From: Mayamaea pseudoterrestris
Lineage: Eukaryota
Assembly: GCA_027923505.1 (NCBI GenBank)
Contig: BROI01000010.1
Span: 434,001 to 498,000 of the forward strand
Direction: 5' to 3'
DNA length: 64,000 nucleotides
This document shows, one piece after another, positions 17,250 through 64,000 of this stretch. Below the pieces are notes generated by a model that saw nothing but the letters and a program-made list of their open reading frames with translations, did no database searches and had not been told where the DNA came from. Positions within the stretch are counted from its first letter, which is position 1, and every line of letters begins with the position of its first letter. The position numbers and the translations under genes are program-made.

Positions 17250-20200
17250 AGCCATATTGTTAAATTCATGAAACGGTCGATCAGGCAGCCCTGGTTTGCA
17301 TTTCAATCTTTTCCTCAAGTGACAACCCCTGCTGTCATGTGCCAGACAGTCATGCCAATGAAAGTGACCCACAGAGGGCCTCCACGGCACCTGTCTTGCA
17401 TGGTTAGATGCTCCATTGTGTGCTGACTCCAGCCATATTGTTGATTTCATGAATGGTCAATCAGGCAGCCCTGGTGTGCATTTCAATCTTTTCCTCAAGT
17501 GACAACACCCACTGTCATGCGCGAGACTGTCATAAAGAGTAAAAATGATTCACAGAGGGGCCTCCACGGCACCTGTCTTGCATGGTTAGATGCTTCATTG
17601 TGTGCTGAGTCCAACTATATTGTTGAATTCATTGAACGGTCAATCAGGCAGCCCTGGTTTGCATTTCAATCTTTTCCTCAAGTGACAACCCCCACTGTCA
17701 TGCGCCAGACAGTCATGCCATTAAAAGTGACCCAAAGAGGGTTTCCACGGCACCTGTCTTGCATGGTTAGATGTGCCATTGTGTGCTGAGTCCAGCCATA
17801 TTGTTGAATTCATGAAATGGTTGATCAGGCAGCCCTGGTTTGCATTTCAATCTTTTCCTCAAGTGACAACACCCGCAGTCATGCGCCAGACTGTCATGCC
17901 ATTGAAAGTGACCCACAGAGGGCCTCCACGGCACCTGTCTTGCATGGTTAGATGCGCCATTGTGTGCTGAGTCCAGCCATATTGTTGAATTCATGAAACG
18001 GTCAATCAGGCAGCCCTGGTTTGCATTTCAATCTTTTCCTCAAGTGACAACCCCGCTGTCATGCGCCAGACTGTCATGCCATTGAAAGTGACCCACAGAG
18101 GGGCCTCCACGGCACCTGTCTTGCATGGTTAGATGCGCCATTGTGTGCTGAGTCCAGCCATATTGTTGAATTCATGAAACGGTCAATCAGGCAGCCCTGG
18201 TTTGCATTTCAATCTTTTCCTCAAGTGACAACACCCACTGTCATGCGCCAGACTGTCATGCCATTGAAAGTGACCCACAGAGGGCCTCCACGGCACCTGT
18301 CTTGCATGGTTAGATGCGCCATTGTGTGCTGAGTCCAGCCATATTGTTGAATTCATGAAACGGTCAATCAGGCAGCCCTGGTTTGCATTTCAATCTTTTC
18401 CTCAAGTGACAACCCCCGCTGTCATGCGCCAGACTGTCATGCCATTGAAAGTGACCCACAGAGGAACCTCCATGGCACCTGTCTTGCATGGTTAGATGTG
18501 CCATTGTGTGTTGAATCAAGCCATATTGTTGAATTCATGAAACGTCAATCAGGCAGCCCTGGTTTGCATTTCAATCTTTTCCTCAAGTGACATGCGCCCC
18601 AGCCTGTCATGCCATTGAAAGTGACCCACAGAGGGCCTCCACGGCACCTGTCTTGCATGGTTAGATGCGCCATTGTGTGCTGAGTCCAGCCATATTGTTG
18701 ATTTCATGAAACAGTCAATCAAGCAGCCCTGGGGTGCATTTCAATCTTTTCCTCAAGTGACAACCCCTGCTGTCATGCGCCAGACTGTCATGCCATTGAA
18801 AGTGACCCACAGAGGGCCTCCACGGCACCTGTCTTGCATGGTTAGATGCGCCATTGTGTGCTGAGTCCAGCCATATTGTTGAATTCATGAAACGGTCGAT
18901 CAGGCAGCCCTGGTTTGCATTTCAATCTTTTCCTCAAGTGACAACCCCCGCTGTCATGCGCCAGACTGTCATGCCATTGAAAGTGACCCACAGAGGGCCT
19001 CCAGGGCACCTGTTTTGCATGGTTAGATGTTCCATTGTGTGCTGAGTCCAGCCATATTGTTGATTTCATGAAACGGTCAATCAGGCAGCCCTGGTTTGCA
19101 TTTCAATCTTTTCCTCAAGTGACAACCCCCGCTGTCATGCGCCAGACTGTCATGCCATTGAAAGTGACCCACAGAGGGGCCTCCACGGCACCTGTCTTGC
19201 ATGGTTAGATGCGCCATTGTGTGCTGAGTGCAGCCATATTGTTGAATTCATGAAACGGTCAATCAGGCAGCCCTGATTTGCATTTCAATCTTTTCCTCAA
19301 GTGACAACCCCCGCTGTCATGCGCCAGACTGTCATGCCATTGAAAGTGACCCACAGAGGGGCCTCCACGGCACCTGTCTTGCATGGTTAGATGCGCCATT
19401 GTGTGCTGAGTCCAGCCATATTGTTGATTTCATGAAACGGTCAATCAGGCAGCCCTGGTTTGCATTTCAATCTTTTCCTCAAGTGACAACCCCCGCTGTC
19501 ATGCGCCAGACTGTCATGCCATTGAAAGTGACCCACAGAGGGCCTCCACGGCACCTGTCTTGCATGGTTAGATGCGCCATTGTGTGCTGAGTCCAGCCAT
19601 ATTGTTGATTTCATGAAACGGTCAATCAGGCAGCCCTGGTTTGCATTTCAATCTTTTCCTCAAGTGACAACCCCCGCTGTCATGCGCCAGACTGTCATGC
19701 CATTAAAAGTGACCCACAGAGGGGCCTCCATGGCACCTGTCTTGCATGGTTAGATGCGCCATTGTGTGCTGAGTCCAGCCATATTGTTGATTTCATGAAA
19801 CGGTCAATCAGGCAGCCCTGGTTTGCATTTCAATCTTTTCCTCAAGTGACAACCCCCGCTGTCATGCGCCAGACTGTCATGCCATTGAAAGTGACCCACA
19901 GAGGGGCCTCCACGGCACCTGTCTTGCATGGTTAGATGCGCCATTGTGTGCTGAGTCCAGCCATATTGTTGATTTCATGAAACGGTCAATCAGGCAGCCC
20001 TGGTTTGCATTTCAATCTTTTCCTCAAGTGACAACACCCACTGTCATGCGCCAGACTGTCATGCCATTAAAAGTGACCCACAGAGGGCCTCCACGGCACC
20101 TGTCTTGCATGGTTAGATGCGCCATTGTGTGCTGAGTCCAGCCATATTGTTGATTTCATGAAACGGTCAATCAGGCAGCCCTGGTTTGCATTTCAATCTT

Positions 20201-23200
20201 TTTCTCAAGTGACAACCCCCGCTGTCATGCGCCAGACTGTCATGCCATTAAAAGTGACCCACAGAGGGGCCTCCACGGCACCTGTCTTGCATGGTTAGAT
20301 GCGCCATTGTGTGCTGAGTCCAGCCATATTGTTGATTTCATGAAACGGTCAATCAGGCAGCCCTGGTTTGCATTTCAATCTTTTCCTCAAGTGACAACCC
20401 CCACTGTCATGCGCCAGACTGTCATGCCATTGAAAGTGACCCGCAGAGGGCCTCCACGGCACCTGTCTTGCATGGTTAGATGCGCCATTGTGTGCTGAGT
20501 CCAGCCATATTGTTGATTTCATGAAACGGTCAATCAGGCAGCCCTGGTTTGCATTTCAATCTTTTCCTCAAGTGACAACCCCCGCTGTCATGCGCCAGAC
20601 AGTCATGCCATTAAAAGTGACCCACAGAGGGCCTCCACGGCACCTGTCTTGCATGGTTAGATGCGCCATTGTGTGCTGAGTCCAGCCATATTGTTGATTT
20701 CATGAAACGGTCAATCAGGCAGCCCTGGTTTGCATTTCAATCTTTTCCTCAAGTGACAACCCCTGCTGTCATGTGCCAGACAGTCATGCCAATGAAAGTG
20801 ACCCACAGAGGGCCTCCACGGCACCTGTCTTGCATGGTTAGATGCTCCATTGTGTGCTGACTCCAGCCATATTGTTGATTTCATGAATGGTCAATCAAGC
20901 AGCCCTGGTGTGCATTTTCAATGCTTCCACAAGTGCCCATGCAACGCTGTCAATTGTTTGCCATTGAAAGTGACCCACAGAGGGCCCCACGGCATCTGTC
21001 TTGCATGGTTAGATGTGCCATTGTGTGCTGAGTCCAGCCATATTGTTGAATTCATGAAACGGTCAATCAGGCAGCCCTGGTTTGCATTTCAATCTTTTCC
21101 TCAAGTGACAACCCCTGCAGTCATGCGCCAGACTGTCATGCCATTGAAAGTGACCCACAGAGGGCCTCCACGGCACCTGTCTTGCATGGTTAGATGCCCC
21201 ATTGTGTGCTGAGTCCAGCCATATTGTTGAATTCATGAAAGACGTCAATCAGGCAGCCCTGGTTTGCATTCATTTTTCTCAAACAACCCCACTGTCATGG
21301 CAGACTGTCATGTGAAAGTGACCCACAGAGGGCCCGGCACCTGTCTTGTGAGGCTGAGTCCAGCTACCCAAGGAAGTCAATCAGGCAGCCCTGGTTGCAT
21401 TTTCTTTCCTCAAGTGACAACACCCACTGTCATGTGCCAGACTGTCATGCCATTGAAAGTGACCCACAGAGGGGCCTCCACGGCACCTGTCTTGCATGGT
21501 GTGCCATTGTGTGCTGAGTCCAGCCATATTGTTGATTTCATGAAACGGTTGATCAGGCAGCCCTGGTTTGCATTTCAATCTTTTTCTCAAGTGACGACCC
21601 CCGCTGTCATGCGCCAGACTGTCATGCCATTGAAAGTGACCCACAGAGGGCCTGCACGGGCACCTGTCTTGCATGGTTAGATGCGATAACGTGTGCTGAG
21701 TCCAGCCATATTGTTATTTTCATGAAACGGTTGATCAGGCAGTCCTGGTTTGCATTTCAATCTTTTCCTCAAGTGACAACCCCCACTGCCATGCGCCAGA
21801 CTGTCATGCCATTGATAGTGACCCACAGCCGGGCCTCCATGGCACCTGTCTTGCATTGTTAGATGCAATATCATGTGCTGAGTCCAGCCATATTATTTTT
21901 TTCATGAAACGGTTGATCAGGCAGCCCTGGTTTGCATTTCAATCTTTTCCTCAAGTGACAACCCCCGCTGATATGCGCCAGATTGTCATGCCATTAAAAG
22001 TGACCCACAGAGGGCCCTCCATGGCACCTGTCTTGCATGGTGTGATGTGCCATTGTGTGCTGAGTCCAGCCATATTGTTGATTTCATGAAACGGTTGATC
22101 AGGCAGCCCTGGTTTGCATTTCAATCTTTTTCTCAAGTGACGACCCCCGCTGTCATGCGCCAGACTGTCATGCCATTGAAAGTGACCCACAGAGGGGCCT
22201 CCACTGCACCTGTCTTGCATGGTTAGATGCGCCATTGTGTGCTGAGTCCAGCCATATTGTTGAATTCATGAAACGGTCAATCAGGCAGCCCTGGATTGCA
22301 TTTCAATCTTTTCTTCAAGTGACAACGCCCACTGTCATGGCCATGCCATGACCAGAGAGGCACGGCACCTGTCTTGCATGGTTAGATGCGCCATTGTGTG
22401 CTGAGTCCAGCCATATTGTTGATTTCATGAAACGGTCAATCAGTCAGCCTTGGTTTGCATTTCAATCTTTTCCTCAAGTGACGACCCCCGGTGTCATGCG
22501 CCAGACTGTCATGCCATTGAAAGTGACCCACAGAGGGCTCGGCAACCGTGTCTTGCATGGTTAGATGCGCCATTGTGAGCTGAGTCCAGCTATATTGTTG
22601 CATTCATCTCGTTTCGGCAGCCACTGGTTTGTTAAACCCGGACCTGTCACGCCCAGACTTATGCCATTGAAAGTGACCCACAGAGAGGCACGGACTCTTT
22701 TCTTGCATGGTTAGATGTTCCATTGTGTGCTGAGTCCAGCCATATTGTTGATTTCATGAAACGGTCAATCAGGCAGCCCTGATTTGCATTTCAATCTTTT
22801 CCTCAAGTGACAACGCCCACTGTCATGCGCCAGACTGTCATGCCATTGAGAGTGACCCACAGAGGGGCCTCCATGGCACCTGTCTTGCATGGTTAGATGC
22901 CCCATTGTGTGCTGAGTCCAGCCATATTGTTGATTTCATGAATCGGTTGATCAGGCAGCCCTGGTTTGCATTTCAATCTTTTCCTCCAGTGACATTCCCC
23001 GCTGTCATGCGCCAGACTGTCATGCCATTGAAAGTGACCCACAGAGAGGCCTCCACGGCACCTGTCTTGCATGGTTAGATGCGCCATTGTGTGCTGAGTC
23101 CAGACATATTGTTGATTTCATGAACCGGTCAGTCAGGCAGCCCTGGTTTGCATTTCAATCTTTTCTCAAGGAGTGACCCCTGTCATGCGCTCTAGACTGT

Positions 23201-26061
23201 CATGCCATTAGAGTGACCCACAGAGGGGGCCTCCACGGCACCTGTCTTGCATGGTTAGATGCGCCATTGTGTGCTGACTCCAGCCATATTGTTGATTTAA
23301 TGAATGGTCAATCAGGCAGCCCTGGTTTGCATTTCAATCTTTTCCTCCAGTGACAACCCCCGCTGTCATGCGCCAGACTGTCATGCCATTGAAAGTGACC
23401 CACAGAGGGCCTCCACGGCACCTGTCTTGCATGGTTAGATGCGCCATTGTGTGCTGAGTCCAGCCATATTGTTGATTTCATGAAACGGTCAATCAGGCAG
23501 CCCTGGTTTGCATTTCAATCTTTTCCTCAAGTGACGACCCCCGCTGTCATGCGCCAGACTGTCATGCCATTGAAAGTGACCCACAGAGGGGGGCCTCCAT
23601 GGCACCTGTCTTACATGGTTAGATGCCCCATTGTGTGCTGAGTCCAGCCATATTGTTGAATTCATGAATCGGTCGATCAGGCAGCCCTGGTTTGCATTTC
23701 AATCTTTTCCTCAAGTGACATTCCCCGCTGTCATGCGCCAGACTGTCATGCCATTGAAAGTGACCCACAGAGAGGCCTCCACGGCACCTGTCTTGCATGG
23801 TTAGATGCGCCATTGTGTGCTGAGTCCAGCCATATTGTTGCATTCATGGAAGGTCAATCAGGCAGCCCTGGTTTGCATTTCAATCTTTTCTCAAACTCAT
23901 GAAGTGACGAAACCCCAGCTCTGTCTTGCTCGTAGCTGTATCAGCGGTTTAATTTTATGAAACCCACATTTGGTCGCCCGAGGGCCTCCACGGCACCTGT
24001 CTTGCATGGTTAGATGCGCCATTGTGTGCTGAGTCCAGCCATATTGTTGATTTCATGAAACGGTCAATCAGGCAGCCCTGGTTTGCATTTCAATCATTTC
24101 CTCAAGTGACAACACCCACTGTGATGCGCGAGACTGTCATCAAGAGTAAAAATGATTCACAGAGGGGCCTCCACGGCACCTGTCTTGCATGGTTAGATGC
24201 TTCATTGTGTGCTGAGTCCACAATTGTTGATTTCATGGACGGTCATTATTTCAATTTTTCCTCAAGTGACAACCCCCGCTGTCATGCGGCAGACTGTCAT
24301 GCCATTAAAAGACCCACAGAGGACCTCACGGCACCTGTCTTTGCATGGTTAGCCCCATGGTGCTGAGTCCAATATTGTTGCTTTCATGAAACGGTAATCA
24401 GGCAGCCCTGGTTTGCATTTCCTTTCGCGTACAACACGCTGTCATGCGCCCAGACTTCAGTGACCCACAGAGGACCTCCATGGCACCTGTCTTGCATGGT
24501 TAGATGCGTAACGTCATTTGTCTGAATTCAGAAACGCCATATTCGGTTTGAATCCTTAAACGGTCATCCCGCGACAACCTGGTTGCATTCAATCTTTACG
24601 ACCCCCGCTGTCTGCGCACGTTAAGCGACCCACAGAGGGGCCTCCACGCACCTGTCTTGCATGGTTAGATGTGCCATTGTGTGTTGAATCAAGCCATATT
24701 GTTGAATTCATGAAACGTCAATCAGGCAGCCCTGGTTTGCATTTCAATCTTTTCCTCAAGTGACAACCCCCGCTGTCATGCGTCAGCCTGTCATGCCATT
24801 AAAAGTGACCCACAGAGGGCCTCCACGGCACCTGTCTTGCGGTGTTAGATGTCCGTGTAACTGAGTCCAGCCATATTGTTGCATTCCAAACGGTTAATCA
24901 GGAGCCCTGGTTTGCATTTCAATCTTTCCTCAAGTGACAACCCCCCAGTTCATCGCGTCAGACTGTCATGCCATTGAAAGTGACCCACAGAGGGCCTCCA
25001 CAGCACCTGTTATGCATGGTTAGATAGCCCCATTGTGCTGAGTCCAGCCATATTGTTGATTTCATGAAACGGTCAATCAGGCAGCCCTGGTTTGCACTCA
25101 TCTTTCCTCAAGTGACAACCCCCCGCTGTCATCCAGAGTCACAGTAAAGTGACCCACAGAGGGCTACACGGCACCTGTCTTGCATGGTTGATGCCATTGT
25201 GTGCTGAGTCAGTTGTATTTTTATTTTGAAGAAAGTCAATCAGGCAGCCCTGGTTTGCATTTCAATCTTTTCCTCAAGTGACAACACCCACTGTCATGCG
25301 CCAGACTGTCATGCCATTAAAAGTGACCCACAGAGGGGCCTCCACGGCACCTGTCTTGCATGCTTAGATGTTGTCTCGTCTTGTGCTGACTCCAGCCATA
25401 TTGTTGATTTCATGAAACGGTCAATCAGGCAGCCCTGGTTTGCATTTCAACCTTTTCCTCAAGTGACAACCCCCACTGTCATGCGCCAGACTGTCATGCC
25501 ATTGAAAGTGACCCACAGAGGAACCTCCATGGCACCTGTCTTGCATGGTTAAATGTGCCATTGTGTGTTGAGTCCAGCCATATTGTTGAATTCATGAAAA
25601 CGGCCAACCAGGCAGCCCTGGCTTGCATTTCAATCTTTTTCCTCAAGTGACAACCCCGCTGTCATGCGCCAGACTGTCATGCCATTAAAAAGTGACCCAC
25701 AGAGGGCCCCGATTCAGGAGACGCTTTGCCGGCCAGCAAGGCATTCAAGAAACGGGCAACAGGCAGCCCGGGCACAAGACCAAGCGGGGCCCTCGGCCTC
25801 CACGGCACCTGTTTTGCATGGTTAGATGCCTTATTGTGTGCTGAGTCCAGCAATATTATTTCATGAAACGGTCAATCCGGCAGCCCTGGTTTGCATTTCT
25901 ATCTTTTCCTCAAGTGACAACCCCCGCTGTCATGCGCCAGACTGTCTTGCCATTAAAAGTGACCCACAGAGGGGCCTCCATGGCACCTGTCTTGCATGGT
26001 TAGATGCGCCATTGTGTGCTGAGTCCAGCCATATTGTTGAATTCATGAAACGGTCAATCAG
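17250..26061 (+). repeat. Satellite A: tandem 181-bp monomer, ~48 copies
   Basis: The unit GTGTGCTGAGTCCAGCCATATTGTTGATTTCATGAAACGGTCAATCAGGCAGCCCTGG... recurs with a 181-bp period (ORF-track copies at 20307, 20488, 20669, 20850). The array is noisier after ~21 kb. Confidence 0.97.
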
Positions 26062-29000
26062 AGTAGTTGACAATTTCAAACCAGCGAAATGCGAAATGCT
26101 TCGACGTCGAGGACTTGCCCAGTGATAAACTCGATGGGAGACTTGCCGTCCAAAGGCAGGATGCGACAAATGACGGTACATCTCGGTCTGAAAGAGTAAA
26201 GCGCGTAGCCAGAAGCACGTGCCCGTTCGGTCCATAAGTCGTTCATGACTTTCCTTTACGTGCCAGATCGCATCGCTGGGTTTTGATTCTGATAATTACG
26301 GCTCCGATGTATGACGGCGGCGAATCATGTCAGCGCGTACTTCGTCAAACTCGGCACTCTCCTTCCTTGCGCCGCGGCCCGAAACTTCAGCGGGCTCAAA
26401 CTTCGCGGATGAAATCACGGAATCGTTTCGGTATCGTCACCCTCCGTCCGCATGGGGATACACGACAATGATCTGACTCGCGACAACCATAGAATAGCTG
26501 CACGTAGCACTTTTCCTGCATGTCCGGGCGATATGGTCATCCATGGCAGGTTCAGTCGAAGAACATGGTGTCATGGGCCACTCGATCATCTAGACGGTAG
26601 GCGTTCAGGGGAATGAAACTCTTTCGATGCATTAGGTAAGGGGGCATCGGCGCTCGTGCATGTTGAACTGCGTGCTATGGCGCAATATCAGATGCGTCTG
26701 CGCCGGGTACCATGCAAGGACCGGCAGCAATGCGTCGATATCGGTTTCTTTGGCAGGACGATAGACTTGTAGGCTGGTGGAGCGAGATCCGCGTATGCAT
26801 GCGACGGCACAAACATTCATCCTTCTCGGTGTAAACAGGTTGATTGTCATGTCCGATTCGTCGTCACGTTGCTCTGACGATGGGTGCGATTCCCGTCGCG
26901 AACGTGTCACGCGCGTGAAGCCCTCTTCGTCGTCACTTCTTCGTGGTCTTCGTGCTGACAACAAGTCCGGTACGTCGTCCTTCGTCATCGTCATCCGAAG
27001 ATCATAGTCGTCGTCCTCCCGGTTGGCTCGGCGTCAAAACTCATTCGGATCCCAAGGTCCATCGAAAGTCATCATGACAGGTAGGTGTGAAGCTCATGCG
27101 CCGACACTGGAAACATTAAAGTCGCCATGCCACTTTCCATTCGAGCATAACTTGTATCCGTCTGTTTCGATTAAGTACACCGCAAGTTGTAATGCTTATT
27201 CGTTTGACATGAAGTCCGAAGGCTTCCATCTGCATACTCGAATGAATCGTCTTGCCGGTTCCAGAATATCGCGTAATATGGAACTCGCCGACGACCCAAC
27301 CCTGGGTATCTTAAGCGCGACTGCTGTGACGGTGGGCAGGTCGGAATTTGAGATCCGACTCAACTTCAATCTTGTGGAACTTGTCCTCGGTAAGGATGCG
27401 GCCGTCCGCTCCCCATACTCCACACCACTCGCGCCGCGATCGACAGTCGACGCTGAATGTTTATCCAATCAATCTCTGACATTTTAACTTGCGACTCTAG
27501 CAATATTTGCTCCCCGATCGTGTCTGGGCTGATCTGGACCTAAAACTCCGCATCACGCCACGGCTAGTGTTGTTCCACACATTCGTCGCACACTCGCTGT
27601 CGTCCGCTGATGAATGGCTCGGCTTCGCTCGTGTTGTACTTTCATCGTTTTGCGTGGTGCCTGCCTGTGTTGCTGATGTCGAACACCTGCAGCACTGGCC
27701 GCTCGATTCGACCACGGCGTTCGCAAACACTTCGTGTTGCATCAAGTGGTAAGGAGTCGCCACATGTTTGGTGGAATCGTCGAATTCACGTCGCTGGGTT
27801 TCGATGCGTCTTCGTGGTCGGCATAGCAGCGAACATGCACGCGCGAGTATCTCGACCGAGGCCGCCGCCGCCATATGGCCCCGTGCTCAAGTCGCCGCGG
27901 ACCACCACCCCTGATTGGATTGCTGATTGTTGCTGCTACTGCGTAGACTGGGAATTGTTCGCGCTTGCCTTGCTTCGTCTTCTCCTTCTCTTGGTTTTGG
28001 TTTGCTCAATTGATTCGCCTGGCGTTTCTCGGTCTCCTTGATGCCACGACGATTGTCAGATTGACGTGCGACGTCGTTCAGGAGGTTCCAAAACTGGGTG
28101 TCACGTATCTTGGGTTCCCAAGTCTTGATTCACCGATGCGTCCCATGTTCACCGCCGATGCCATATCCGCATTTGGCGGAAAAACCGCGCGCTTCAAAAT
28201 CTGACGTTTCGTGCTTGCTGTAAGTAGCTTCGGTTTCCTCGGCGTTAGTCATTGTAGTTCTCTTCCTTGCTGGACCACTGGATAAAGCGCGCCAATTGAC
28301 GAGAGACTTGGCGTAACTCGCGTCGAGTGAGTAAACGCCATTCGTCTTCGGCCAACGTAGATCCAACTTGCGCGCCATCCCGTCGAGGAATAAGTCGCGC
28401 CAACGCTCTGCAATCACCTGAGGCATTCGCTGTCGATGTGCTTTGCGGACAATGAGCTTGCTCTGGCGGTGTCTTGCAGGTATACTCGAGCGCCGCTAAA
28501 AGCTTCGAACACTGATACGCTCCGGCGAATTCGGGCTCGAAAAGCAGCTGGTGCCTTGAACTTCGTCGTCCAAAAAAGTAGCCAAGTCGCTCGCTTGCAC
28601 ATGCGGTTCTTGAAGGCCGCCAGTAGGGCGCCAGAACTTCGATCGTTCTTGAGCTCCAGCATGGTCTTCAGATCCAGCTTGATGTCGTGTCGCTTCATCT
28701 CGTGGTGTCGTTGCCTCGATAACGCTGAAGTCTCCGAAACTGCGGTTGCCTGTGGTCGGTGACCCCGGTGCTGCTGGGAGGTCTCAGCTCGTAATGTGGT
28801 CTTTCTCCAGGTCTTGCCATTGCGCAGTCGTCCGACGTTGCTCGTGAATCCAACTCATGAGCTTGCGCAATCGGCTTGTTCGTATCGTCGACCACTGGTG
28901 CAGGGTCTTAATGTTCGTCACGTCTTGTTCCGACAGCTCGGCCATCGCCTCCGCAGTCGTGAGTTCCTCTTGCTTGAAACACACTGCGGTAGGGTCGTTT

Positions 29001-29248
29001 GGATCCCAAGTTGCGGATGCTGCGAGCCACGGAATGTCGAAGACTTTACCGACGGCACGCTTGTAGGTCGTTACATCAATTGTCGCCATGGTGGAGGTTG
29101 ATCAGAGGAATCGGACTCGCTGCAGACGAATGTGTCACAATAGCTCCCTCGCTCGTTCTTGCTCTCGAAGCACTGAAATGTTAATCTAACACCGTTGACG
29201 ATTTCGCAGTCAACGTCTTACCTCCAAAAAGCTCCGATACAGGGTCCT

Positions 29249-29581
29249 TGGCCACGGTCTGTACAGCTCTTGATGGAGATGGCTCGTCGAATAGTCTTGC
29301 GCTCGCCACTACACGAATACGACTGCACTCTCGTCGCAAACTAGTAGTTCTATATTGTGAGCTTATCGCTACATCGCTACATCGACCACTCGGAAGATCA
29401 TCCGATCAATCCGTTTCTTTCAATCACATTACATCAGTCGTAACTGGTCGTTCCATTCATACAACGCATCCACACGGCGGTTGCGCACTTTCTTCATTCA
29501 CATGTCACATACGACAGCTGCGGACTCGACACAAGCTAATTAGGGTTCGGGCTCTTGACTTCGCCGCTCTGCGACTTGTCA
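29249..29581 (-). repeat. Shared central LTR (3' LTR of the right unit, 5' LTR of the left unit)
   Basis: On the minus strand it is preceded by the RNase H end and a polypurine tract, and followed by a PBS-like motif and a second gag. I count about 4 substitutions relative to the other LTR. Confidence 0.8.
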
Positions 29582-34564: not shown

Positions 34565-34705
34565 GGTGGAGGTTGATCAGAGGAATCGGACTCGCTGCAG
34601 ACGAATGTGTCACGATAGCTCCCTCGCTCGTTCTTGCTCTCGAAGCACTGAAATGTTAATCTAACACCGTTGACGATTTCGCAGTCAACGTCTTACCTCC
34701 AAAAA

Positions 34706-34716
34706 GCTCCGATACA
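34706..34716 (-). other. PBS-like motif (second copy at 29231-29241)
   Basis: TGTATCGGAGC resembles the initiator-tRNA-Met PBS TGGTATCRGAGC but lacks one G. It lies between the LTR and gag. Confidence 0.4.
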
Positions 34717-34723
34717 GGGTCCT

Positions 34724-35056
34724 TGGCCACGGTCTGTACAGCTCTTGATGGAGATGGCTCGTCGAATAGTCTTGCGCTCGCCACTACACGAATACGACTG
34801 CACTCTCGTCGCAAACTAGTAGTTCTATATTGTGAGCTTATCGCTACATCGCTACATCGACCACTCGGAAGATCATCCGATCAATCCGTTTCTTTCAATC
34901 ACATCACATCAGTCGTAACTGGTCGTTCCATTCATACAACGCATCCACACGACGGTTGCGCACTTTCTTCATTCACATGTCACATTTGACAGCTGCGGAC
35001 TCGACACAAGCTAATTAGGGTTCGGGCTCTTGACTTCGCCGCTCTGCGACTTGTCA
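34724..35056 (-). repeat. 5' LTR of the Copia element (inner boundary approximate)
   Basis: Begins TGACAAGTCG on the minus strand at 35056. Identity with the 29.2-29.6 kb copy ends exactly there. The putative CA end is at 34724. Confidence 0.8.
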
Positions 35057-51312: not shown

Positions 51313-51495
51313 GAGTCAGGGCAAAATATGTCCAGGGTATGCCATTGACAGGTGCATAGTCTCAAATGGTGCAAAGGACTGCCTGGAGGCTGACACCATA
51401 AGTACGGCCTCCACTGTGGGTATGGGGCCAACACCACAAGTTGCAGATTCATCCGCCAACGCCTTCATGCCCTGGCCACCCAAATACCCATGTCG

Positions 51496-54400
51496 CAGGC
51501 AGTCCTTTTTGCACCATTTGAGACTCTGCACCTGTCAATGGCATACCCTGGACATGTTTTGCCTGACTCATTGGGTATTTGGGGGGCCAGGGCATGGGGC
51601 GTTTGACAGGGAAGAATCGACAACTCTATGGTGTTGGTGATACCCACAGTGGAGGCGCACCATGGTGTCAGCCTCCAGGCAGTCCTTTTGCACCATTTGG
51701 AGACTAGTGACTGTCAATGGCATACCCTGACATGTTTTGCCTAACTCCATTGGGCAGGCCAGGGGCATGGGGCTTGATTAGGAAGAATCTGCAACTTGTG
51801 GTGTTGGCCATACCCACAGTGGAAATACGTGACCATGTTTTCAGCCTCCAGGCAGTCCTTGCACATTGACTCTGCACCTGTCAATGGCATCCTGGACATG
51901 TTTTGTCTGACTCATTGGGTATTTGGGTGGCCGGGGCAGGGGCGTTTGACAGGGAATCGACAACTTGTGGTGTTGGCCAACCCACAGTGGAGGCCGCACC
52001 ATGGTGTCAGCCTCCAGGCAGTCCTTTGCACCTGAGACTGCACCCGTCAATGGCATACCCTGACATGCTTTGCCTGACTCATTGGGTATTTGGGTGGCCA
52101 GGGCATGGGGCGTTTGAAGGAGAATCGACAACTTGGGTGTTGGCCAACCCACCGTGGAGGCCGTACCCACGGTGTCAGCCTCCAGGCAGTCCTTTTTGCA
52201 CCATTTGAGACTCTGCACCTGTCAATGGCATACCCTGGACATGTTTTGCCTGACTCATTGGGTATTTGGGTGGCCAGGGCATGGGGAGTTTGACAGGGAA
52301 GAATCTGCAACTTGTGGTGTTGGCCATAACCCACCGTGGAGGCCGCACCCATGGTGTCAGCCCCAGGCAGTCCTTTTTTGCACCATTTGAGACTCCGCAC
52401 CTGTCAATGGCATACCCTGAACATGTTTTGGCCTGACTCATTGGGTATTTGGGTGGCCAGGGCATGGGGCGTTTGACAGGGAACGACAACTTGGGGTTGG
52501 CCAACCACCGGGAGGCCGGCTGGTGTCAGCCTCCAGGCAGTCCTTTTTGCACCATTTGAGACTCAAGCACCTGTCAATGGCATACCCTGGACATGTTTGG
52601 CCTGACCCACCGGGTATTTGGGTGGCCAGGGCAGGGCGTTGGACAGGCAGACAACTTTGGTGTTGGCCAACCCGACAGGGACCGCACCAGGTGTCGCCCG
52701 GATCCTTTGGCACCATTTGAGACTCTGCACCCGTCAGGCAGCCCTGACATGTTTGGCCTGACTCATTGGTATTTGGGCGGCGCAAGCATGGGGGCGCTTG
52801 ACGGGTCAGAACGACAACTTGGGGTGTTGACCCGTGGGAGGCCGAACCAGGTGCCAGCCAGGCAGTCCTTTTTGCACCATTTGAACTCTTGCACTCTGTC
52901 AATGGCATACTCCTGGACATGTTTGGCCAGACTCATTGATTTGGGTGGCAGGGCATGGGGCGCTTTGACAGGTCAGAATCGACAAGCCTGGGAGAAGGCC
53001 ATACCCATTTCACCCCCCCGGGAGGCCGCACCACGGGTCAGCCTCCAGGGCAGTCCTTTTTGCACCATTTGAGACTCTGCACTCAGCTGGTCGGCCCTGA
53101 CAGGTTGTAGCCTGCATTGGATGGTGGCCAGCATAGTGACAGGGTACAGAATCTGACAACTTGTGGTGTTGGCCATACCCACCGTGTGAGGCCGTACCCA
53201 TGGTGTCAGCCCCAGGCAGTCCTTGCACCATTTGAGACTCTGCACCTTGTCAATGGCATACCCTACTACGTTTGGCCTGACCTCCATTGGGCATTTGGGT
53301 GGCCACGGACAGCTGCCCAAAAGACCTGGGAGGCGAATACCCACCGTGGAGGCCTGTGTGCCAGCCTCCAGGCAGTTCCCAGCACCATGAGACTTTCAGA
53401 TTCCTGTCAATGGCATACCCTGGACATGTTTGCCTGACTCATTGGGTATTTGGGTGGCCAGGACGGGGGGCTGACCGCAGTAGAAACAAACTTGCGGTGT
53501 TGGTCATACTCCACCGTGGAGGCCGCATCATATGGTGCCAGCCTCCAGGCAGTCCTTTTTGCACCATTTGAACTCTGCACTCTGTCAATGGCATACCTCT
53601 GGACATGTTTTGGCTCTGACTCATTGGGTATTTGGGTGGCCAGGGCATGGGGCGTTGGACAGGTCACAATCGACAACTTGCGGTGTTGGCTAGCTCCACC
53701 GTGGGAGGCCGTACATGGGGTCCTTTGCAACCGGTCAATGGCAACCTACATGCTTGGCGACTCATTTATTTGGGTGGCCAGGCATGGGGCGTTTGACAGG
53801 TCAGAATCGACAACTTGTGGTGTTGACTATACCCACCGGTGGAGGCCGCACTCCATGGTGCCCCAGGCAGTCCTTTGCACCATTTGAACTCTTGCACGTC
53901 AATGGCATACCCTGGAGCACATGCTTGTGCCTGACTCATTGGGTATTTGGGTGACAGGGCATGTGGGCGTACAGGTCAGAATGATTAACTTGTGGTGTTG
54001 GCCATACCCACCGCGGGAGGCCGCACCCATGGTGCAGCCCCAGGCAGTCCTTGCACCATTTGAGACTCTGCACCTGTCAATGGCATACCCTGGACATGTT
54101 TTGGCCCGGTATTGGGGGCCAGGGCAGAAGGGCTTGACAGGTCAGAATCGACAACTTGTGGTGTTGGCTATGATCGGGGAGGCGGACTGGCCTGCAGGCA
54201 GTCCTTTGCACCATTTGAGACTTGCACCTGTCAATGGCATACCCTTGACATGTTTGGCCGGACTCATTGTGTATATGGGTGGCAGCAGGGGTGACAGGTC
54301 AAACCGACAACTTGTGGTGTTGGCCATGCTCCACCGTGGAGGCCGGACCCATGGCGTCAGCCTCCAGGCAGTCCTTTTTGCACCATTTGAGACTCTGCAC

Positions 54401-57400
54401 CTGTCAATGGCAAACCCCGACATGTTTGGACTGACTCATTGGGTATTTGGGGGGAGAGAAGGGCGCTGACAGGTCAGAACCGACAACTTGTGGGAGATAC
54501 ACCACCGTGGGAGGCCGTGAACTCACGGTGTCAGCCCCAGGGGCAGTCCTTTTGCACCATTTGAAACTCTCACCGGACAATGGCATACCCTGGACATGTT
54601 TGGCCTGACTCATCGGGTATTTGGGTGGCCAGGGCATGGGGCGCTGACAGGTCAGAACCGACAACTTGGTGGTGTTGGCCATACCCACTGCGAGGCCGGA
54701 CTCCATGGTGCCAGCTCCTTGTGGCAGTCTTGGTTATTTGAGAGACTCTGGCACCTAGTCAATAGCATCCCCTGACATGTTTTCGCATCTGGGACTCATT
54801 GGGTATTTGGGCTGGCCTGGGCATGGTAAAGGACAGGCAGAATCGACATCTTGTGGTGTTGGCTATACCCACCGTGGAGGCAACAAGGGTCAGCCTCCAG
54901 GCAGTCCTGCACCATTTGAGACTCTGCACCTGTCACATGTTTGGACTGACTCCATCGGGTGGAGCCAGGGCGCATGGTACGCAGAATCGATAACTCGGGT
55001 GTTGGCAGACCTCCACCGTGGAGGCTTCCGGACCCCATGGGTGTCAGCCCCAGGCAGTCCTTTTGGCAAACCATTTGAGACCTGCACCTGTCAATGGCAC
55101 ACCCTGACATGTTTGGCGGGACCTTGTACGCCAGGGCACAGGGGCGATGGGAAGAATCGACAACTCAGGTGTTAATACCCACCAGAGTCGTACTCCACGT
55201 GTCAGCCCAGGCAGTCCCTCTTGCACCATTTGAGACTCACCTGTCAATTGGGCCGACCATCGGGTATTTGGGTGGCCAGGGCATGGGCAAGTTGAACAGG
55301 CTGTGAACTGACAACTTGTGGTGGTGGCCAGGCCCACCGTAGGCCGTGCATCGCGGTGTCAGCCTCCCAGTGCACCATTTGAGCCCGTAAAGTCATTTGC
55401 ATACCCTAAGGGGTGTCATCTACCCATTGGTATTTGGGTGGCAAGGCATGGGGTGTTTGACAGGGAAAAGAAACACCAGGTGTGTAATACCCACCCCGGA
55501 GGCTGTACTCACGGCAGCCTCCAGGCAGTCCTCTTTGCACTCATTTGAGACTCTGCACCTGTCAATGGCATACCCTGACATGTTTTGGTCTGACTCATTG
55601 CATTTGGGGCCAGGATGGGGCGCTTGACAGGTCAGAATCGACAACTTGTGGGGCACATACCCACCGTGGAGGCTGCACACGGTGTCAGCCTCCAGGCAGT
55701 CCTTTGCACCTCACATTTGAGACTCACCCAGTCCCACATGTTTTGCCTGACCGGGTATTTGGGGTGGCCAGGGGGACAGAATCGACAACTTGTGGTGTTG
55801 GCTATACCCACCGGAGTCGCACTATGGTGTCAGCCTAGGCAGTCCTTTTGTAATCATTTACTCTGCACCTGTCAATGGCATACTCTTAAATAATGTTTGG
55901 CCTGACTCATTGGGTATTTGGGGTGGCCAGGCATGGGGCGTTTGACAGGAAGAATCGTGTCCCAGGTGTTGGCCATACTCCACCGGAGGCCAGACGTGCC
56001 AGCCTAGCAGTCTTGCACCATTTGAGACCACCACAATGGCATACCTGATATGTTTCCATCGACCCATTGCATTCAGATACTTTACAAGTACAAATGGGCT
56101 TGACAGGTCAGACCTAGACAACTTGTGGTGTTGGCTATACCCACCATAGAGGCCGTAATTCATGAAGTCATAGCCTAGGCAGTCCTTTTGCACCATTTGA
56201 GACTCAATCTATTCATGGCATACTGGCGATATGTTGGCCCTGAATCAGATTGACTGGGGGGGTGTAAATTGACAGGCAGAATCGACAACTTGTAAACACA
56301 TAGCCCACCGTAGTGTACTGATGGTGTCAGCCCCAGGCAGTCCTTTTGCACCAGCTGAGACTCTGTACTGTCACAAATACCCTGGGACAGTGTTTGGCCT
56401 GGATCTCATTGTATTTGGGCTGCCAGGCATAATGACAGGTTAGAATCGACAACTTGTAGGTTGGCACATACCATCGTGGGAGGAGCGTGTCAGCCTCCAG
56501 CAGTCCTTTGCATCATGAGACTCTGCACCTGTCAATGGCATACTTGACATGTTTTACCTGACTCATGGTAATTGGGTGGCCAGGCATGTGGCAAGGTCAA
56601 TCTGCAACTTGTGGTAGTTGGCCAACCCACTGCGGAGGTCAGACTATATGGTGTCAGCCTCGGCAGTCTCAGCACTGAGATTCTCAGACGTCAATGAAAA
56701 GCACCCTGACATGTTTACCTGTCATTGCTAGTTGCAGGGCATACACAGATTGACAACTGGGGGGACTATTCCACGAGGCGCATCCAGCGGTGTCAGCCTC
56801 CAGGCAGTGCAATATTTATCTCTGCACCCAAGTCAATCAGTTAGGTTCTGACTCATTGGGTATGGTGTCACCAGGCATGTGGGGCGTTGGAGCAGAGTAT
56901 TAGAAGATGTAGGCTAATATACCCACCGTGGAGGCCGTACTCCATGGTGTCAGCCTCCAGGCAGTCCTTTTGCACCATTTGAGACTCTGCACCCACAATG
57001 CATGCCTGGAGCCATGTTTGGCTCAGATTCATTGGATTTGGGTGGCTAGGCATAATGTACAGGCAGAATGAAATTTGTAGTACACACAGTCCTGTGAGCT
57101 GGCGTGTCAGCCTCAGGCAGTCCTTTTGCACTATTTGAGACTCTGTACCTGTCAATTACAATTCCTATATCACCGACTTCATTGGCAGGGTGCTGTAGAA
57201 TGGGTTATGTTTGACAGGTCAGAATTGACAATCCTGTGGTGTTGGCCAGATCACACTGTGGGAGGCTGTACCCATGGTGTCAGCGCAGTCCTTTTGCACC
57301 ATTTGAGACTCTGCACCTGTCAATTACACCTATATGGCCTTTGCCTGACTCTTATTTCAAGGCCAGGGGCAGGGGGTGACAGTGGAAGGATCTGCACACT

Positions 57401-58147
57401 TGTGGTGTTGGCTATACCCACAGTGGAGGCCGCATCTATGTTTTCAGCCCAGGCAGTGTCTGCACCATTTGAGACTCTGCACCCAATAATGGCATCCCCA
57501 GCAAGTGTTTGGCCTGACTCATTGGGTACGCAGGCCAGGCATGGGGCGTTTGACAGGAAGAATTTATAACTTGTGGTGTTGGCCATACCCACCGTGGAGG
57601 CCATACCTGCTGGTGTCCTCAGGCAGTCTGAAATCATTTGAGACTCTGCACCTGTCACTGCATACCCTGACATGTTTTGCCTGGGACCTCCATCAGAGCT
57701 GGGTACTACATGGGGCATTTGGCAAAGAATCGACACCTCTGTGGTGTTGGCCATACCCACCGGTGGAGGCCATCTGCGGTGTCAGCCTCCAGGCAGTCCT
57801 TGCACCATTTGGAGACTCACTGTCAATGGCATACCCTGGACAATATCAGTCTGACTCATTTATTTGGGTGGCCAGGCATGGGGGCGGACAGATCAGAATT
57901 GACAATCTCAGGCGTTGGCTATACTCCACCGTAGGCTGCATCAGTGGTGTTGTGGCCTCTGGCAGTCTTTTTGCACCATTTGAGACTATGCACCTGTCAA
58001 TGGCATACCCTGGACATGTTTGGCCTGACTCATTGGGTATTTAAGTGGCCAGGGCATGGGGCGTTTGACAGGTCAGAATCGACAACTTGTTGTGTTGGCC
58101 ATACCCACCGTGGAGGCCGTACCTTGGTGTCAGCCCAGGCAGTCCTT
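51496..58147 (-). repeat. Satellite B, inverted and more divergent block
   Basis: The reverse complement of the B unit (CAGGCAGTCCTTTTTGCACCATTTGAGACTCTGCACCTGTCAATGGCATACCC...) runs from 51496 to the satellite C junction. Confidence 0.95.
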
Positions 58148-61100
58148 GGTGACAAGTTGTCACCAATATCATTGCCGTCCCCTGAGACACTAGCCAGGCA
58201 TACCATCTTGTAGCGCAATTTGAATAATGATGTTGGCACCATTCTGGTGTCATTTGGGTGTATACATGGCCTGCTGTACGGTAGGGGCGTTTGAATGTCA
58301 CGGCATCTGCAGGCTGAGACTGGTGACAAGTTGTCACCAATATCATTGCCGTCCCCTGAGACACTAGCCAGGCATACCATCTTGTAGCGCAGCCTGAATA
58401 ATGATGTTGGCACCATTCTGGTGTCATTTGGTTGTATACATGGCCTGCTGTAGGGGCGTTTGAATGTCACGGCATCTGCAGGCTGAGACTGGTGACAAGT
58501 TGTCACCAATATCATTGCCATCCCCTTAGACAATAGCCAGGCATACCATCTTGTAGGGCAGCTTGAATAGTGATGTTGGCAATATTCTGGTGACATTTGG
58601 GTGTAAACATGGCCTGCTGTAGGGGTGTTTGAATGTCAAGGCATCCGCGGGCTGAGACTGGTGACAAGTTGTCACCAATATCATTGCCGTCCCCTGAGAC
58701 ACTAGCCAGGGCATACCATCTTGTAGGGCAGCTTGAATAATGATATTGGCAATATTCTGGTGACATTTGGGTGTATACATGGCCTGCTGTAGGGGCGTTT
58801 GAATGTCACGGCATCTGCAGGCTGAGACTGGTGACAAGTTGTCACCAATATCATTGCCATCCCCTGAGACACTAGCCAGGTTTACTATCTTGTTGCGCAG
58901 CCTGAATAATGATGTTGGCACCATTCTGGTGTCATTTGGGTGTATACATGGCCTGCTGTAGGGGCGTTTGAATGTCACGGCATCTGCGGGCTGAGACTGG
59001 TGACAAGTTGTCACCAATATCATTGCCATCCCCTGAGACACTAACCAGGCATACCATCTTGTAGCGCAGCCTGACTAATGATGTTGGCACCATTCTGGTG
59101 TCATTTGGGTGTATACAGGGCTTGCTGTAGGGGCGTTTGAATGTCACGGCATCTGCGGGCTGAGACTGGTGACAAGTTGTCACCAATATCATTACCGTCC
59201 CCTGAGACACTAGCCAGGCATACCATCTTGTAGGGCAGCTTGAATAATGATATTGGCAATATTCTGGTGACATTTGGGTATATACCTGGCCTGCTGTAGG
59301 GGCGTTTGAATGTCACGGCATCTGCGGGCTGAGACTGGTGACAAGTTGTCACCAATATCATTGCTGTCCCCTGAGACACTAGCCAGGCATACCATCTTGT
59401 AGGGCAGCTTGAATAATGATATTGGCAATATTCTGGTGACATTTGGGTATATACCTGGCCTGCTGTAGGGGCGTTTAAATGTCACGGCATCTGCAGGCTG
59501 AGACTGGTGACAAGTTGTCACCAATATCATTGCCATCCCCTGAGACACTAGCCAGGTATACCATCTTGTAGCGCAGCCTGAATAATGATGTTGGCACCAT
59601 TCTGGTGTATTTTGGGCACCTACAGGGCTTACTGTAGGGGCGTTTGAATGTCACGGCATCTGCGGGCTGAGACTGGTGACAAGTTGTCACCAATATCATT
59701 GCCGTCCCCTGAGACACTAGCCAGGCATACCATCTTGTAGCGCAGCCTGAATAATGATGTTGGCACCATTCTGGTGTCATTTGGGTGTATACATGGCCTG
59801 CTGTAGGGGCGTTTGAATGTCACGGCATCTGCAGGCTGAGACTGGTGACAAGTTGTCACCAATATCATTGCCATCCCCTGAGACACTAGCCAGGCATACC
59901 ATCTTGTAGCGCAGCCTGAATAATGATGTTGGCACCATTCTGGTGTCATTTGGGTGTATACATGGCCTGCTGTAGGGGCGTTTGAATGTCACGGCATCTG
60001 CAGGCTGAGACTGGTGACAAGTTGTCACCAATATCATTGCCGTCCCCTGAGACACTAGCCAGGCATACCATCTTGTAGCGCAGCCTGAATAATGATGTTG
60101 GCACCATTCTGGTGTCATTTGGGTGTATACATGGCCTGCTGTAGGGGCGTTTGAATGTCACGGCATCTGCAGGCTGAGACTGGTGACAAGTTGTCACCAA
60201 TATCATTGCCGTCCCCTGAGACACTAGCCAGGCATACCATCTTGTAGCGCAGCCTGAATAATGATGTTGGCACCATTCTGGTGTCATTTGGGCACCTACA
60301 GGGCCTGCTGTAGGGGCGTTTGAATGTCACGGCATCTGCGGGCTGAGACTGGTGACAAGTTGTCACCAATATCATTGCCGTCCCCTGAGACACTAGCCAG
60401 GCATACCATCTTGTAGCGCAGCCTGAATAATGATGTTGGCACCATTCTGGTGTCATTTGGGTGTATACATGGCCTGCTGTAGGGGCGTTTGAATGTCACG
60501 GCATCTGCAGGCTGAGACTGGTGACAAGTTGTCACCAATATCATTGCCGTCCCCTGAGACAATAGCTAGGCATACCATCTTGTAGCGCAGCCTGAATAAT
60601 GATGTTGGCACCATTCTGGTGTCATTTGGGTGTATACATGGCCTGCTGTAGGGGCGTTTGAATGTCACGGCATCTGCAGGCTGAGACTGGTGACAAGTTG
60701 TCACCAATATCATTGCCATCCCCTGAGACACTAGCCAGGCATACCATCTTGTAGCGCAGCTTGAATAATGATGTTGGCAATTTTCTGGTGACATTTGGGT
60801 ATACACATGGCCTGCTGTAGGGGCGTTTGAATGTCACGGCATCCGCGGGCTGAGACTGGTGACAAGTTGTCACCAATATCATTGCCGTCCCCTGAGACAC
60901 TAGCCAGGCATACCATCTTGTAGCGCAGCCTGAATAATGATGTTGGCACCATTCTGGTGTCATTTGGGTGTATACATGGCCTGCTGTAGGGGCGTTTGAA
61001 TGTCACGGCATCTGCAGGCTGAGACTGGTGACAAGTTGTCACCAATATCATTGCCGTCCCCTGAGACACTAGCCAGGCATACCATCTTGTAGCGCAGCCT

Positions 61101-64000
61101 GAATAATGATGTTGGCACCATTCTGGTGTCATTTGGGTGTATACATGGCCTGCTGTAGGGGCGTTTGAATGTCACGGCATCTGCAGGCTGAGACTGGTGA
61201 CAAGTTGTCACCAATATCATTGCCGTCCCCTGAGACACTAGCCAGGCATACCATCTTGTAGCGCAGCCTGAATAATGATGTTGGCACCATTCTGGTGTCA
61301 TTTGGGTGTATACATGGCCTGCTGTAGGGGCGTTTGAATGTCACGGCATCTGCAGGCTGAGACTGGTGACAAGTTGTCACCAATATCATTGCCGTCCCCT
61401 GAGACACTAGCCAGGCATACCATCTTGTAGCGCAGCCTGAATAATGATGTTGGCACCATTCTGGTGTCATTTGGGTGTATACATGGCCTGCTGTAGGGGC
61501 GTTTGAATGTCACGGCATCTGCAGGCTGAGACTGGTGACAAGTTGTCACCAATATCATTGCCGTCCCCTGAGACACTAGCCAGGCATACCATCTTGTAGC
61601 GCAGCCTGAATAATGATGTTGGCACCATTCTGGTGTCATTTGGGTGTATACATGGCCTGCTGTAGGGGCGTTTGAATGTCACGGCATCTGCGGGCTGAGA
61701 CTGGTGACAAGTTGTCACCAATATCATTGCCGTCCCCTGAGACACTAGCCAGGCATACCATCTTGTAGCGCAGCCTGAATAATGATGTTGGCACCATTCT
61801 GGTGTCATTTGGGTGTATACATGGCCTGCTGTAGGGGCATTTGAATGTCACGGCATCTGCAGGCTGAGACTGGTGACAAGTTGTCACCAATATCATTGCC
61901 GTCCCCTGAGACACTAGCCAGGCATACCATCTTGTAGCGCAGCCTGAATAATGATGTTGGCACCATTCTGGTGTATTTTGGGCACCTACAGGGCCTGCTG
62001 TAGGGGCGTTTGAATGTCACGGCATCTGCAGGCTGAGACTGGTGACAAGTTGTCACCAATATCATTGCCGTCCCCTGAGACACTAGCCAGGCATACCATC
62101 TTGTAGCGCAGCCTGAATAATGATGTTGGCACCATTCTGGTGTCATTTGGGTGTATACATGGCCTGCTGTAGGGGCGTTTGAATGTCACGGCATCTGCAG
62201 GCTGAGACTGGTGACAAGTTGTCACCAATATCATTGCCGTCCCCTGAGACACTAGCCAGGCATACCATCTTGTAGCGCAGCCTGAATAATGATGTTGGCA
62301 CCATTATGGTGTCGTTTTGGGTCGTACAGGGCCTGCTGTAGGGGCGTTTGAATGTCACGGCATCTGCAGGCTGAGACTGGTGACAAGTTGTCACCAATAT
62401 CATTGCCGTCCCCTGAGACACTAGCCAGGCATACCATCTTGTAGCGCAGCCTGAATAATGATGTTGGCACCATTCTGGTGTCATTTGGGTGTATACATGG
62501 CCTGCTGTAGGGGCGTTTGAATGTCACGGCATCTGCAGGCTGAGACTGGTGACAAGTTGTCACCAATATCATTGCCGTCCCCTGAGACACTAGCCAGGCA
62601 TACCATCTTGTTGCGCAGCCTGAATAATGATGTTGGCACCATTCTGGTGTCATTTGGGTGTATACATGGCCTGCTGTAGGGGCGTTTGAATGTCACGGCA
62701 TCTGCGGGCTGAGACTGGTGACAAGTTGTCACCAATATCATTGCCGTCCCCTGAGACACTAGCCAGGCATACCATCTTGTAGCGCAGCCTGAATAATGAT
62801 GTTGGCACCATTCTGGTGTCATTTGGGTGTATACATGGCCTGCTGTAGGGGCGTTTGAATGTCACGGCATCTGCAGGCTGAGACTGGTGACAAGTTGTCA
62901 CCAATATCATTACCGTCCCCTGAGACACTAGCCAGGCATACCATCTTGTAGCGCAGCCTGAATAATGATGTTGGCACCATTCTGGTGTATTTTGGGCACC
63001 TACAGGGCCTGCTGTAGGGGCGTTTGAATGTCACGGCATCTGCAGGCTGAGACTGGTGACAAGTTGTCACCAATATCATTGCCGTCCCCTGAGACACTAG
63101 CCAGGCATACCATCTTGTTGCGCAGCCTGAATAATGATGTTGGCACCATTCTGGTGTCATTTGGGTGTATACATGGCCTGCTGTAGGGGCGTTTGAATGT
63201 CACGGCATCTGCAGGCTGAGACTGGTGACAAGTTGTCACCAATATCATTGCCGTCCCCTGAGACACTAGCCAGGCATACCATCTTGTTGCGCAGCCTGAA
63301 TAATGATGTTGGCACCATTCTGGTGTCATTTGGGTGTATACATGGCCTGCTGTAGGGGCGTTTGAATGTCACGGCATCTGCAGGCTGAGACTGGTGACAA
63401 GTTGTCACCAATATCATTGCCGTCCCCTGAGACACTAGCCAGGCATACCATCTTGTAGCGCAGCCTGAATAATGATGTTGGCACCATTCTGGTGTCATTT
63501 GGGTGTCTACAGGGCCTGCTGTAGGGGCGTTTGAATGTCACGGCATCTGCAGGCTGAGACTGGTGACAAGTTGTCACCAATATCATTGCCGTCCCCTGAG
63601 ACACTAGCCAGGCATACCATCTTGTAGCGCAGCCTGAATAATGATGTTGGCACCATTCTGGTGTCATTTGGGCACCTACAGGGCCTGCTGTAGGGGCGTT
63701 TGAATGTCACGGCATCTGCGGGCTGAGACTGGTGACAAGTTGTCACCAATATCATTGCCGTCCCCTGAGACACTAGCCAGGCATACCATCTTGTAGCGCA
63801 GCCTGAATAATGATGTTGGCACCATTCTGGTGACATTTGGGTATATTCATGGCCTGCTGTAGGGGCGTTTGAATGTCACGGCATCTGCAGGCTGAGACTG
63901 GTGACAAGTTGTCACCAATATCATTGCCGTCCCCTGAGACACTAGCCAGGCATACCATCTTGTAGCGCAGCCTGAATAATGATGTTGGCACCATTCTGGT
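58147..64000 (+). repeat. Satellite C: tandem 169-bp monomer, >34 copies, runs off the window end
   Basis: Unit TGGTGACAAGTTGTCACCAATATCATTGCCGTCCCCTGAGACACTAGCCAGGCATACC... with an exact 169-bp period (ORFs at 60960, 61129, 61298, 61467) and almost no indels. Confidence 0.98.

Follow-up and report, generated by a model that had tools for sequence, protein, structure and literature searches.

Descriptions of diatom genomes usually feature centromeres that are short and AT-rich, along with methylated transposable elements (TEs) in isolated islands. In Phaeodactylum, the centromeres are low-GC peaks of 2.4-5.6 kb without arrays, one per chromosome (10.1101/096016; statements on papers cited in this way refer to the accessible part of the text, unless noted otherwise). 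The centromeres predicted for Fistulifera are similar (10.1101/2021.11.10.468027), and methylation in diatoms is located on repeats, in many cases close to telomeres (PMC9998398). Here we examine a 64,000-nucleotide stretch of Mayamaea pseudoterrestris DNA (GCA_027923505.1, contig BROI01000010.1, forward-strand positions 434,001 to 498,000), hereafter called the window, in which genes are followed by three satellite families (A, B and C) and by Copia retrotransposon DNA. The architecture is a different one: in a 30-Mb assembly, one satellite accounts for at least 4%, and at least 14 unrelated families converge on units of 144-184 bp or multiples thereof. A first-pass annotation of the window had proposed a layered satellite centromere, with a subtelomeric or heterochromatic block as the fallback; its premise that Phaeodactylum centromeres are short, low in GC and free of satellite arrays agrees with 10.1101/096016. 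We will argue that this diatom genome has many heterochromatic satellite islands of a non-centromeric kind and that the block belongs to them, a reading to which we assign a probability of roughly 0.6, the term non-centromeric being drawn from the distribution of the satellites. The weight of the finding is in the genome-wide satellite library, the polarity of B and a conserved palindrome in C, rather than in this locus.

The assembly comprises 30.6 Mb in 41 contigs, labelled C1-C30 etc. below; the window is C10:434,001-498,000, on a contig of 1,067,527 bp. The motif of satellite C occurs in at least 7,714 exact copies, corresponding to at least 1.3 Mb or 4.3% of the assembly. A sample of 121 copies, drawn by means of two rare variants and merged at a distance of 60 kb, falls into 51 clusters on 27 contigs, 13 of which have two or more. 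With all sources included, there are at least 67 clusters on 34 of the 41 contigs, up to seven on a single one (C12), and a capture-recapture estimate, based on 7 recaptures only, gives ca 110. One cluster per chromosome, as the centromere proposal would have it, is thus contradicted at the level of contigs, which are not proven to be chromosomes. The arrays at 20 sampled loci extend from ~0.1 kb, the smallest being a single monomer surrounded by genes, up to more than 20 kb, many of these values being lower bounds, and satellite mosaics reach ~300 kb. The first 638 kb of C1, on the other hand, contain no exact C motif. A metagenome scan for C returned one match only, an isolated 23 bp without an array.

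In total, at least 14 unrelated families were found, 11 with units of 144-184 bp and three of 347-511 bp, with observed/expected CpG ratios (CpG o/e) of 0-0.43. Comparison of these 14 revealed no shared sequence above chance, and a common 8-mer was rejected as a candidate (10 in the real sequences against a null mean of 15). Satellites are found in 27 of the 82 contig termini, and the arrays are homogenised array by array, with subfamilies. The CpG o/e is 0.13-0.39 in satellites (0.22-0.39 for those of the window) compared to 1.1 in genes, and within arrays the change is 0.113 at CpG and 0.044 at other C/G positions. The fallback of a heterochromatic or subtelomeric block fits these CpG values, and also the ties of B to chromosome ends described below.

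Three other loci can be mentioned here. On C30 (303 kb), nine stretches from the interior and the ends were examined, and eight of them are mostly B/C mosaic; this contig is the strongest candidate for a large block of heterochromatic or centromeric nature. A 172-bp family forms an array of 21 kb at C12:24-45.5 kb, with higher-order periods of 687 bp and 514 bp. At C3:747.8-752.9 kb, short pieces of family D and of C fold back around a 674-bp repeat that is also present beside other C arrays; this structure is possibly a mobile composite.

We now turn to satellite B. At 9 of 9 contig termini the B arrays have one and the same polarity (p 0.004), which is also that seen beside the telomere; this count leaves out the near-terminal arrays on C28 (same polarity) and C6 (opposite), and becomes 10/11 with both. 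For C arrays, in contrast, the corresponding polarity is 7/11. The sole assembled telomere (TTAGGG), at the start of C11, is directly abutted by B. Moreover, at four places where C meets the outer end of B, a short TTAGGG stub is located exactly between the two. Three of these places (C10:502.25 kb, C10:82 kb and C30:294 kb) are of one junction type, and the fourth (C30:219.8 kb) is of a second, independent type. Together with the inversion in the window, where two B arrays meet outer end to outer end, the stubs would correspond to the geometry of joined chromosome ends. B leans subtelomeric: it abuts the telomere with fixed polarity, yet it is not confined to ends.

Satellite C contains a perfect 19-bp palindrome. 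Arms of this kind arise in 1 of 300 shuffles, and the palindrome is the most conserved of 133 windows in the monomer, its deviation across 496 monomers being 0.013 compared to 0.055, which holds in all of the 13 arrays. Most of these 13 arrays were located through one near-palindrome match each. A bias from alignment ends was excluded by rotating the consensus. A 347-bp satellite at the start of C26 has a 27-bp palindrome that includes the 9-bp core of the C palindrome, while the 8-mers shared among the families are overall not above chance level.

Within the window (Table 1), all three reported tandem families are present, A with 181 bp, B with 180/181 bp and C with 169 bp (Tandem Repeats Finder (TRF), BLAST). 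The TRF scores reach 10,770, and no match is obtained in any of five shuffled sequences. The arrays are long, head-to-tail, high in copy number and non-coding, which makes them satellite DNA, and their GC content of 0.50-0.55 is roughly balanced, as had been stated. The three families are mutually unrelated (z 0-4, best local match 19-66 bp), values that exclude a common ancestry. A 10-bp AA/TT periodicity was looked for and none was seen.

Table 1. Features of the window; positions are counted from its first nucleotide.
Feature	Position	Strand	Remarks
Gene island	1..17249	.	DEAD/GRF helicase, CNNM, HMG-box, NOP14 (Pfam); second allele of C8:794-811.3 kb
Gene-to-satellite junction	17249..17250	.	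No support in listed contigs of 4/4 short-read runs
Satellite A, 181 bp	17250..26061	+	~48 monomers; clean up to 21,348, indel-rich beyond
Truncated second Copia internal region (gag side)	26062..29186	-	Cut by satellite A; 87.8% to 31,509-35,059; tblastn to sister open reading frame
Shared long terminal repeat (LTR), 395 bp	29187..29581	-	Preceded by polypurine tract
Copia internal region	29582..34661	-	Many frameshifts; ~0.8 kb shorter than sister copies
5' LTR, 395 bp	34662..35056	-	~1% different from other LTR
Old CpG-depleted Copia reverse transcriptase relic	35060..37188	+	tblastn E 4e-14 and 1e-8; CpG o/e 0.38
Satellite B, 180/181 bp	37189..51495	+	Indel-rich; tandem duplications of 2,567 bp (37,675-42,808) and ~1,912 bp (47,488-51,300)
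Satellite B, inverted	51496..58147	-	Outer (terminus-facing) end meets outer end of B+ at 51,495/51,496
First copy of the 19-bp perfect palindrome of C	58147..58165	.	9-bp arms, 1-bp centre
Satellite C, 169 bp	58148..64000	+	97.5% to consensus; dominant family; runs 4.3 kb past window, ends in short TTAGGG stub

The reported strand inversion is also present, in B (B+ and B- in Table 1). The B- arm is no mirror copy of the left arm, and a fold-back read was ruled out as the cause since there is no mirror diagonal. To the right of the window, 4.3 kb of C are followed by a 99%-identical array of a 352-bp B dimer (B'), noisy C and TEs; farther right come a fourth family of 184 bp, a second C subfamily and a second Copia, before the genes. 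Among 22 loci compared, no clear collinear partner was found for the B/C part.

It had been suggested that the window is layered by age, with older A and B flanking a younger C core. C is indeed the most homogeneous array of the window and the one farthest from the genes, which is however true only inside the window: the C array runs out 4.3 kb past the window edge, and the next genes are found at C10:553.9 kb. B looks old here because its sequence is indel-rich, with 0.8-1.75 indels per substitution compared to 0.13 in C. Elsewhere, at the termini of C4, C18 and C20, the same B subfamily is 98-99% homogeneous without indels, and 95-99% identical to the window consensus. The B array at the end of C10 is as noisy as that of the window. 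In the window, a tandem duplication of 2,567 bp of noisy B contains a single mismatch, and further duplications, likewise near-perfect, have periods of 1,912, 1,534 and 6,868 bp. Between the two copies of the Copia internal region there are 151 substitutions along with 183 indels, 116 of which are of 1 bp, while the LTRs differ by ~1%, a pattern that age would not be able to produce. The apparent layers are thus largely the noise of unpolished sequence, and the order of the arrays, also beyond the window, is a patchwork with no gradient. Satellite layers read off this assembly can, in other words, be the result of polishing noise and mis-joins. The layered-centromere reading is unsupported: there are many clusters per contig, no real age gradient, and a C8 allele of the flank that lacks such a block.

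The gene flank is in fact a second allele of a region on C8. The segment from -14 kb to position 17,249 duplicates C8:770-811.3 kb, with 95.5% identity over 25 kb, the indels climbing from ~12 kb on in per-kb differences. Past this flank, the C8 allele continues with single-copy genes and has no satellite block. On the right, the flank duplicates C12:78.7-96 kb; the first 97 kb of the C12 allele have C and other satellites, and neither A nor B. Both alleles of some regions are accordingly present in the assembly (window 1-17,249 and C8; C10:554-566 kb and C12), ~0.5-4% apart, and because of such duplicated alleles the genome may appear larger and richer in genes than it is. Further C arrays lie 1.5 kb to the left of the window, which makes the gene-dense part a 19-kb island. 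The genes of the window are of ordinary kinds according to a Pfam scan; among the 120 homologues listed for NOP14, a protein of Bacillariaceae sp. at 55% is the only named one, and it fits a diatom, as does the TTAGGG telomere. In NOP14 (8,271-11,504), a Tudor_5-like stretch lies between two Nop14 parts, as is also the case in several homologues. The claim of ~47 kb without recognisable host genes is borne out over the part scanned, no open reading frame from 25.9-58 kb having a Pfam match, and the gene-free stretch around the window amounts to ~100 kb, with Copia insertions.

The abrupt switch from genes to satellites exists in the assembly, but it is bridged by no contig, among the matches listed, of four short-read runs (X1-X4, contigs only; at most three samples, two studies; one may be the source). 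The contigs of X1, X2 and X4 continue past 17,249 into non-satellite letters that match C8:811,302, and the X3 contig likewise stops fitting at 17,249, again among the matches listed. Ten sites at 11.5-11.9 kb distinguish the window from C8, and there X1, X2 and X4 carry the allele of the window; farther right, 32 of the 37 listed run letters are those of C8. A simple insertion of the block into the C8 allele was rejected, since the C8 continuation matches nothing in C10:414-588 kb. We conclude that the left join is probably a product of the assembly. The assembled block looks like a composite of C8-like allele, A, Copia, B+, B-, C, B' and C12-like allele, partly mis-joined. Satellite A itself is real: one A monomer has a summed contig depth of ~55-145x that of the flank in X1-X3 and near zero in X4, which is no measure of copy number. 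It is a minor family, with other arrays on C3, C4, C12 and C16, and the C10 array is no copy of the C3 array, there being no collinearity between them.

As to the Copia DNA, its presence is confirmed, while the claimed nesting could not be substantiated; the elements instead form a tandem pair sharing one LTR. The ends of the LTRs were set by 5-bp target duplications at sister copies on C12 and C8, such duplications being found in 2 of 3 sister copies examined. According to these duplications, the LTRs (window 34,662-35,056 and a sister copy) appear to be TG...TA and not TG...CA. The longest stop-free stretch in the window copy is 336 amino acids (aa), compared to 841-1,500 aa in four sister copies, and that of 1,500 aa on C12 contains RVT_2 (E 1e-20). 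LTRs, polypurine tract, RVT_2 and target duplication identify the family as a Ty1/Copia LTR retrotransposon, with RVT_2 and the duplication taken from sister copies. In the C12 sister open reading frames no chromodomain, which CoDi-like Copia elements carry at the C-terminus, was matched by Pfam at E 0.05, the integrase being missed by the same scan. Young Copia has a CpG o/e of 1.25-1.4, and the family is seen on C8, C10, C12, C19 and C23.

A possible scenario for the satellite islands is as follows. The arrays would be silenced by CG methylation (DNMT5, as in Phaeodactylum), and their CpG eroded by deamination. Unequal exchange would homogenise the arrays, ectopic exchange and end-to-end joins would spread them, and units of nucleosome length may be selected. 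Copia elements would insert and be tolerated. B would be linked to subtelomeres, and its interior blocks may be joined ends.

Several observations weigh against this interpretation. Duplicated alleles and mis-joins may have raised the cluster counts. In conservation, the palindrome exceeds the remainder of the C monomer fourfold, which neutral heterochromatin does not predict. In a subsample, 18 of 25 B copies are more than 50 kb from a contig terminus, a count to which mis-joins may contribute, and the near-terminal B on C6 has the opposite polarity. Finally, short-read contigs drop rare variants and the runs may be of other strains, such that a strain-private rearrangement is possible. One such case would be that the order A-Copia-B-C is a genuine, strain-private heterozygous chromosome, which arose when two ends with satellites were joined by translocation or fused end to end, with the joins located where B+ meets B- and where C and its telomere stub meet B'. 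The recurrence of the C-stub-B' junction at three places in the assembly, the second type at C30:219.8 kb, the inversion that is no fold-back mirror, and the C8 side of the left join, which has no repeat able to mislead an assembler, are all in line with this. Yet the noise grows towards the left join, the runs that match the allele of the window at 11.5-11.9 kb nonetheless depart at 17,249, noisy DNA is duplicated near-perfectly, and no target duplication flanks the Copia with which the C8-like segment ends on its far side, so that we regard such a fusion as quite unlikely.

A centromeric role could take two forms. In a monocentric satellite (peri)centromere, each chromosome would have one large B/C mosaic (this block or C30) with the small C islands as spill-over, and the B polarity would come from B arrays in opposite orientation on either side of a centre at which contigs break, 51,495/51,496 being an intact example. 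This would account for the ~100 kb of gene-free sequence with Copia insertions, for the 303-kb contig C30, with B/C mosaic in most of the stretches examined, and for the satellites in 27/82 termini. No low-GC patch of the Phaeodactylum type was found in C10:414-588 kb either (in any 3 kb, at most 9 of ~290 overlapping windows of 100 bp have a GC of 32% or less), and long Copia-rich centromeres have a precedent in stramenopiles (PMC7082073). The proposal is nevertheless unlikely in our view, as there is no real age layering, several large blocks are present on C10 alone (54-94, 394-433 and 451-553 kb, and the end of the contig), the flank alleles on C8 and C12 lack A and B, B abuts the telomere, and the mapped or predicted diatom centromeres are short and low in GC. 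In the other form, a dispersed repeat-based holocentromere or polycentromere, each C array would be a unit like the Tyba satellite of Rhynchospora, with the 19-bp palindrome as a putative protein-binding box and B marking the ends. One 169-bp unit of nucleosome length in many arrays on 34/41 contigs, C arrays at matching places on both alleles, and the palindrome deviation of 0.013 vs 0.055 in 13/13 arrays speak for it, and by our arithmetic ~110 clusters correspond to ~12-14 kb per 280 kb, compared to ~20 kb per 400 kb for Tyba (PMC10954556). We find it very unlikely, however, given array sizes from one monomer to large mosaics, the first 638 kb of C1 without the exact motif, and 13 other families in the same islands. 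In Phaeodactylum, moreover, each chromosome has a single peak of 2.4-5.6 kb, a 170-bp library that is just as dispersed is kept off the centromeres in Tribolium, and hairpin-templated repair could conserve a palindrome without any function.

Among the literature matches listed, subscription papers being outside the scope, there is no diatom satellite library and no holocentric or satellite-based diatom centromere. The main text of the Mayamaea pseudoterrestris paper (PMC9724779) has no mention of satellite, centromere, tandem repeat, subtelomere or heterochromatin, and the accessible part of PMC9266582 does not mention satellites. A, B and C, together with the conserved palindrome, are ready probes for separating monocentric, dispersed and non-centromeric roles.

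Compared with the known systems, the block differs from the diatom centromeres, which are 1.4-5.6 kb, low in GC and without long repeats, in its length of ~100 kb, its GC of 50% and its being made up of repeats throughout. Phytophthora parasitica is another stramenopile rich in satellites (PpSat, PMC7290008), and long Copia-rich heterochromatin is shared with the CoLT-rich centromeres of P. sojae (PMC7082073); CoLT is centromere-enriched, whereas the Copia family here is seen on five contigs. Satellite C resembles Tyba (10.64898/2026.01.17.700053; PMC10954556) in having a ~170-bp unit and many arrays per chromosome, with rough size and spacing alike and positions common to alleles, a likeness at the level of description. 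Tyba is CENH3-proven and stable in array size, whereas C is a candidate only, with arrays of uneven size that are mixed with other families. The subtelomeric satellite of Ectocarpus (PMC11541908) likewise adjoins a TTAGGG telomere in a stramenopile, but its unit of ~98 bp holds the telomere motif and is nearly end-confined, while B has units of 181/352 bp and is mostly interior in the assembly. With Cast1-Cast9 of Tribolium castaneum (PMC4675708; 10.1101/2023.04.24.538079), the present library shares units of ~170/340 bp, a share of ~4% of the genome, dispersal among genes and exchange between chromosomes, and those satellites are non-centromeric there. What sets M. pseudoterrestris apart is a unicellular genome of 30 Mb, in which the satellites have a GC of 0.45-0.55 and strongly eroded CpG, one family alone makes up 4.3%, and B has a telomere-linked polarity.

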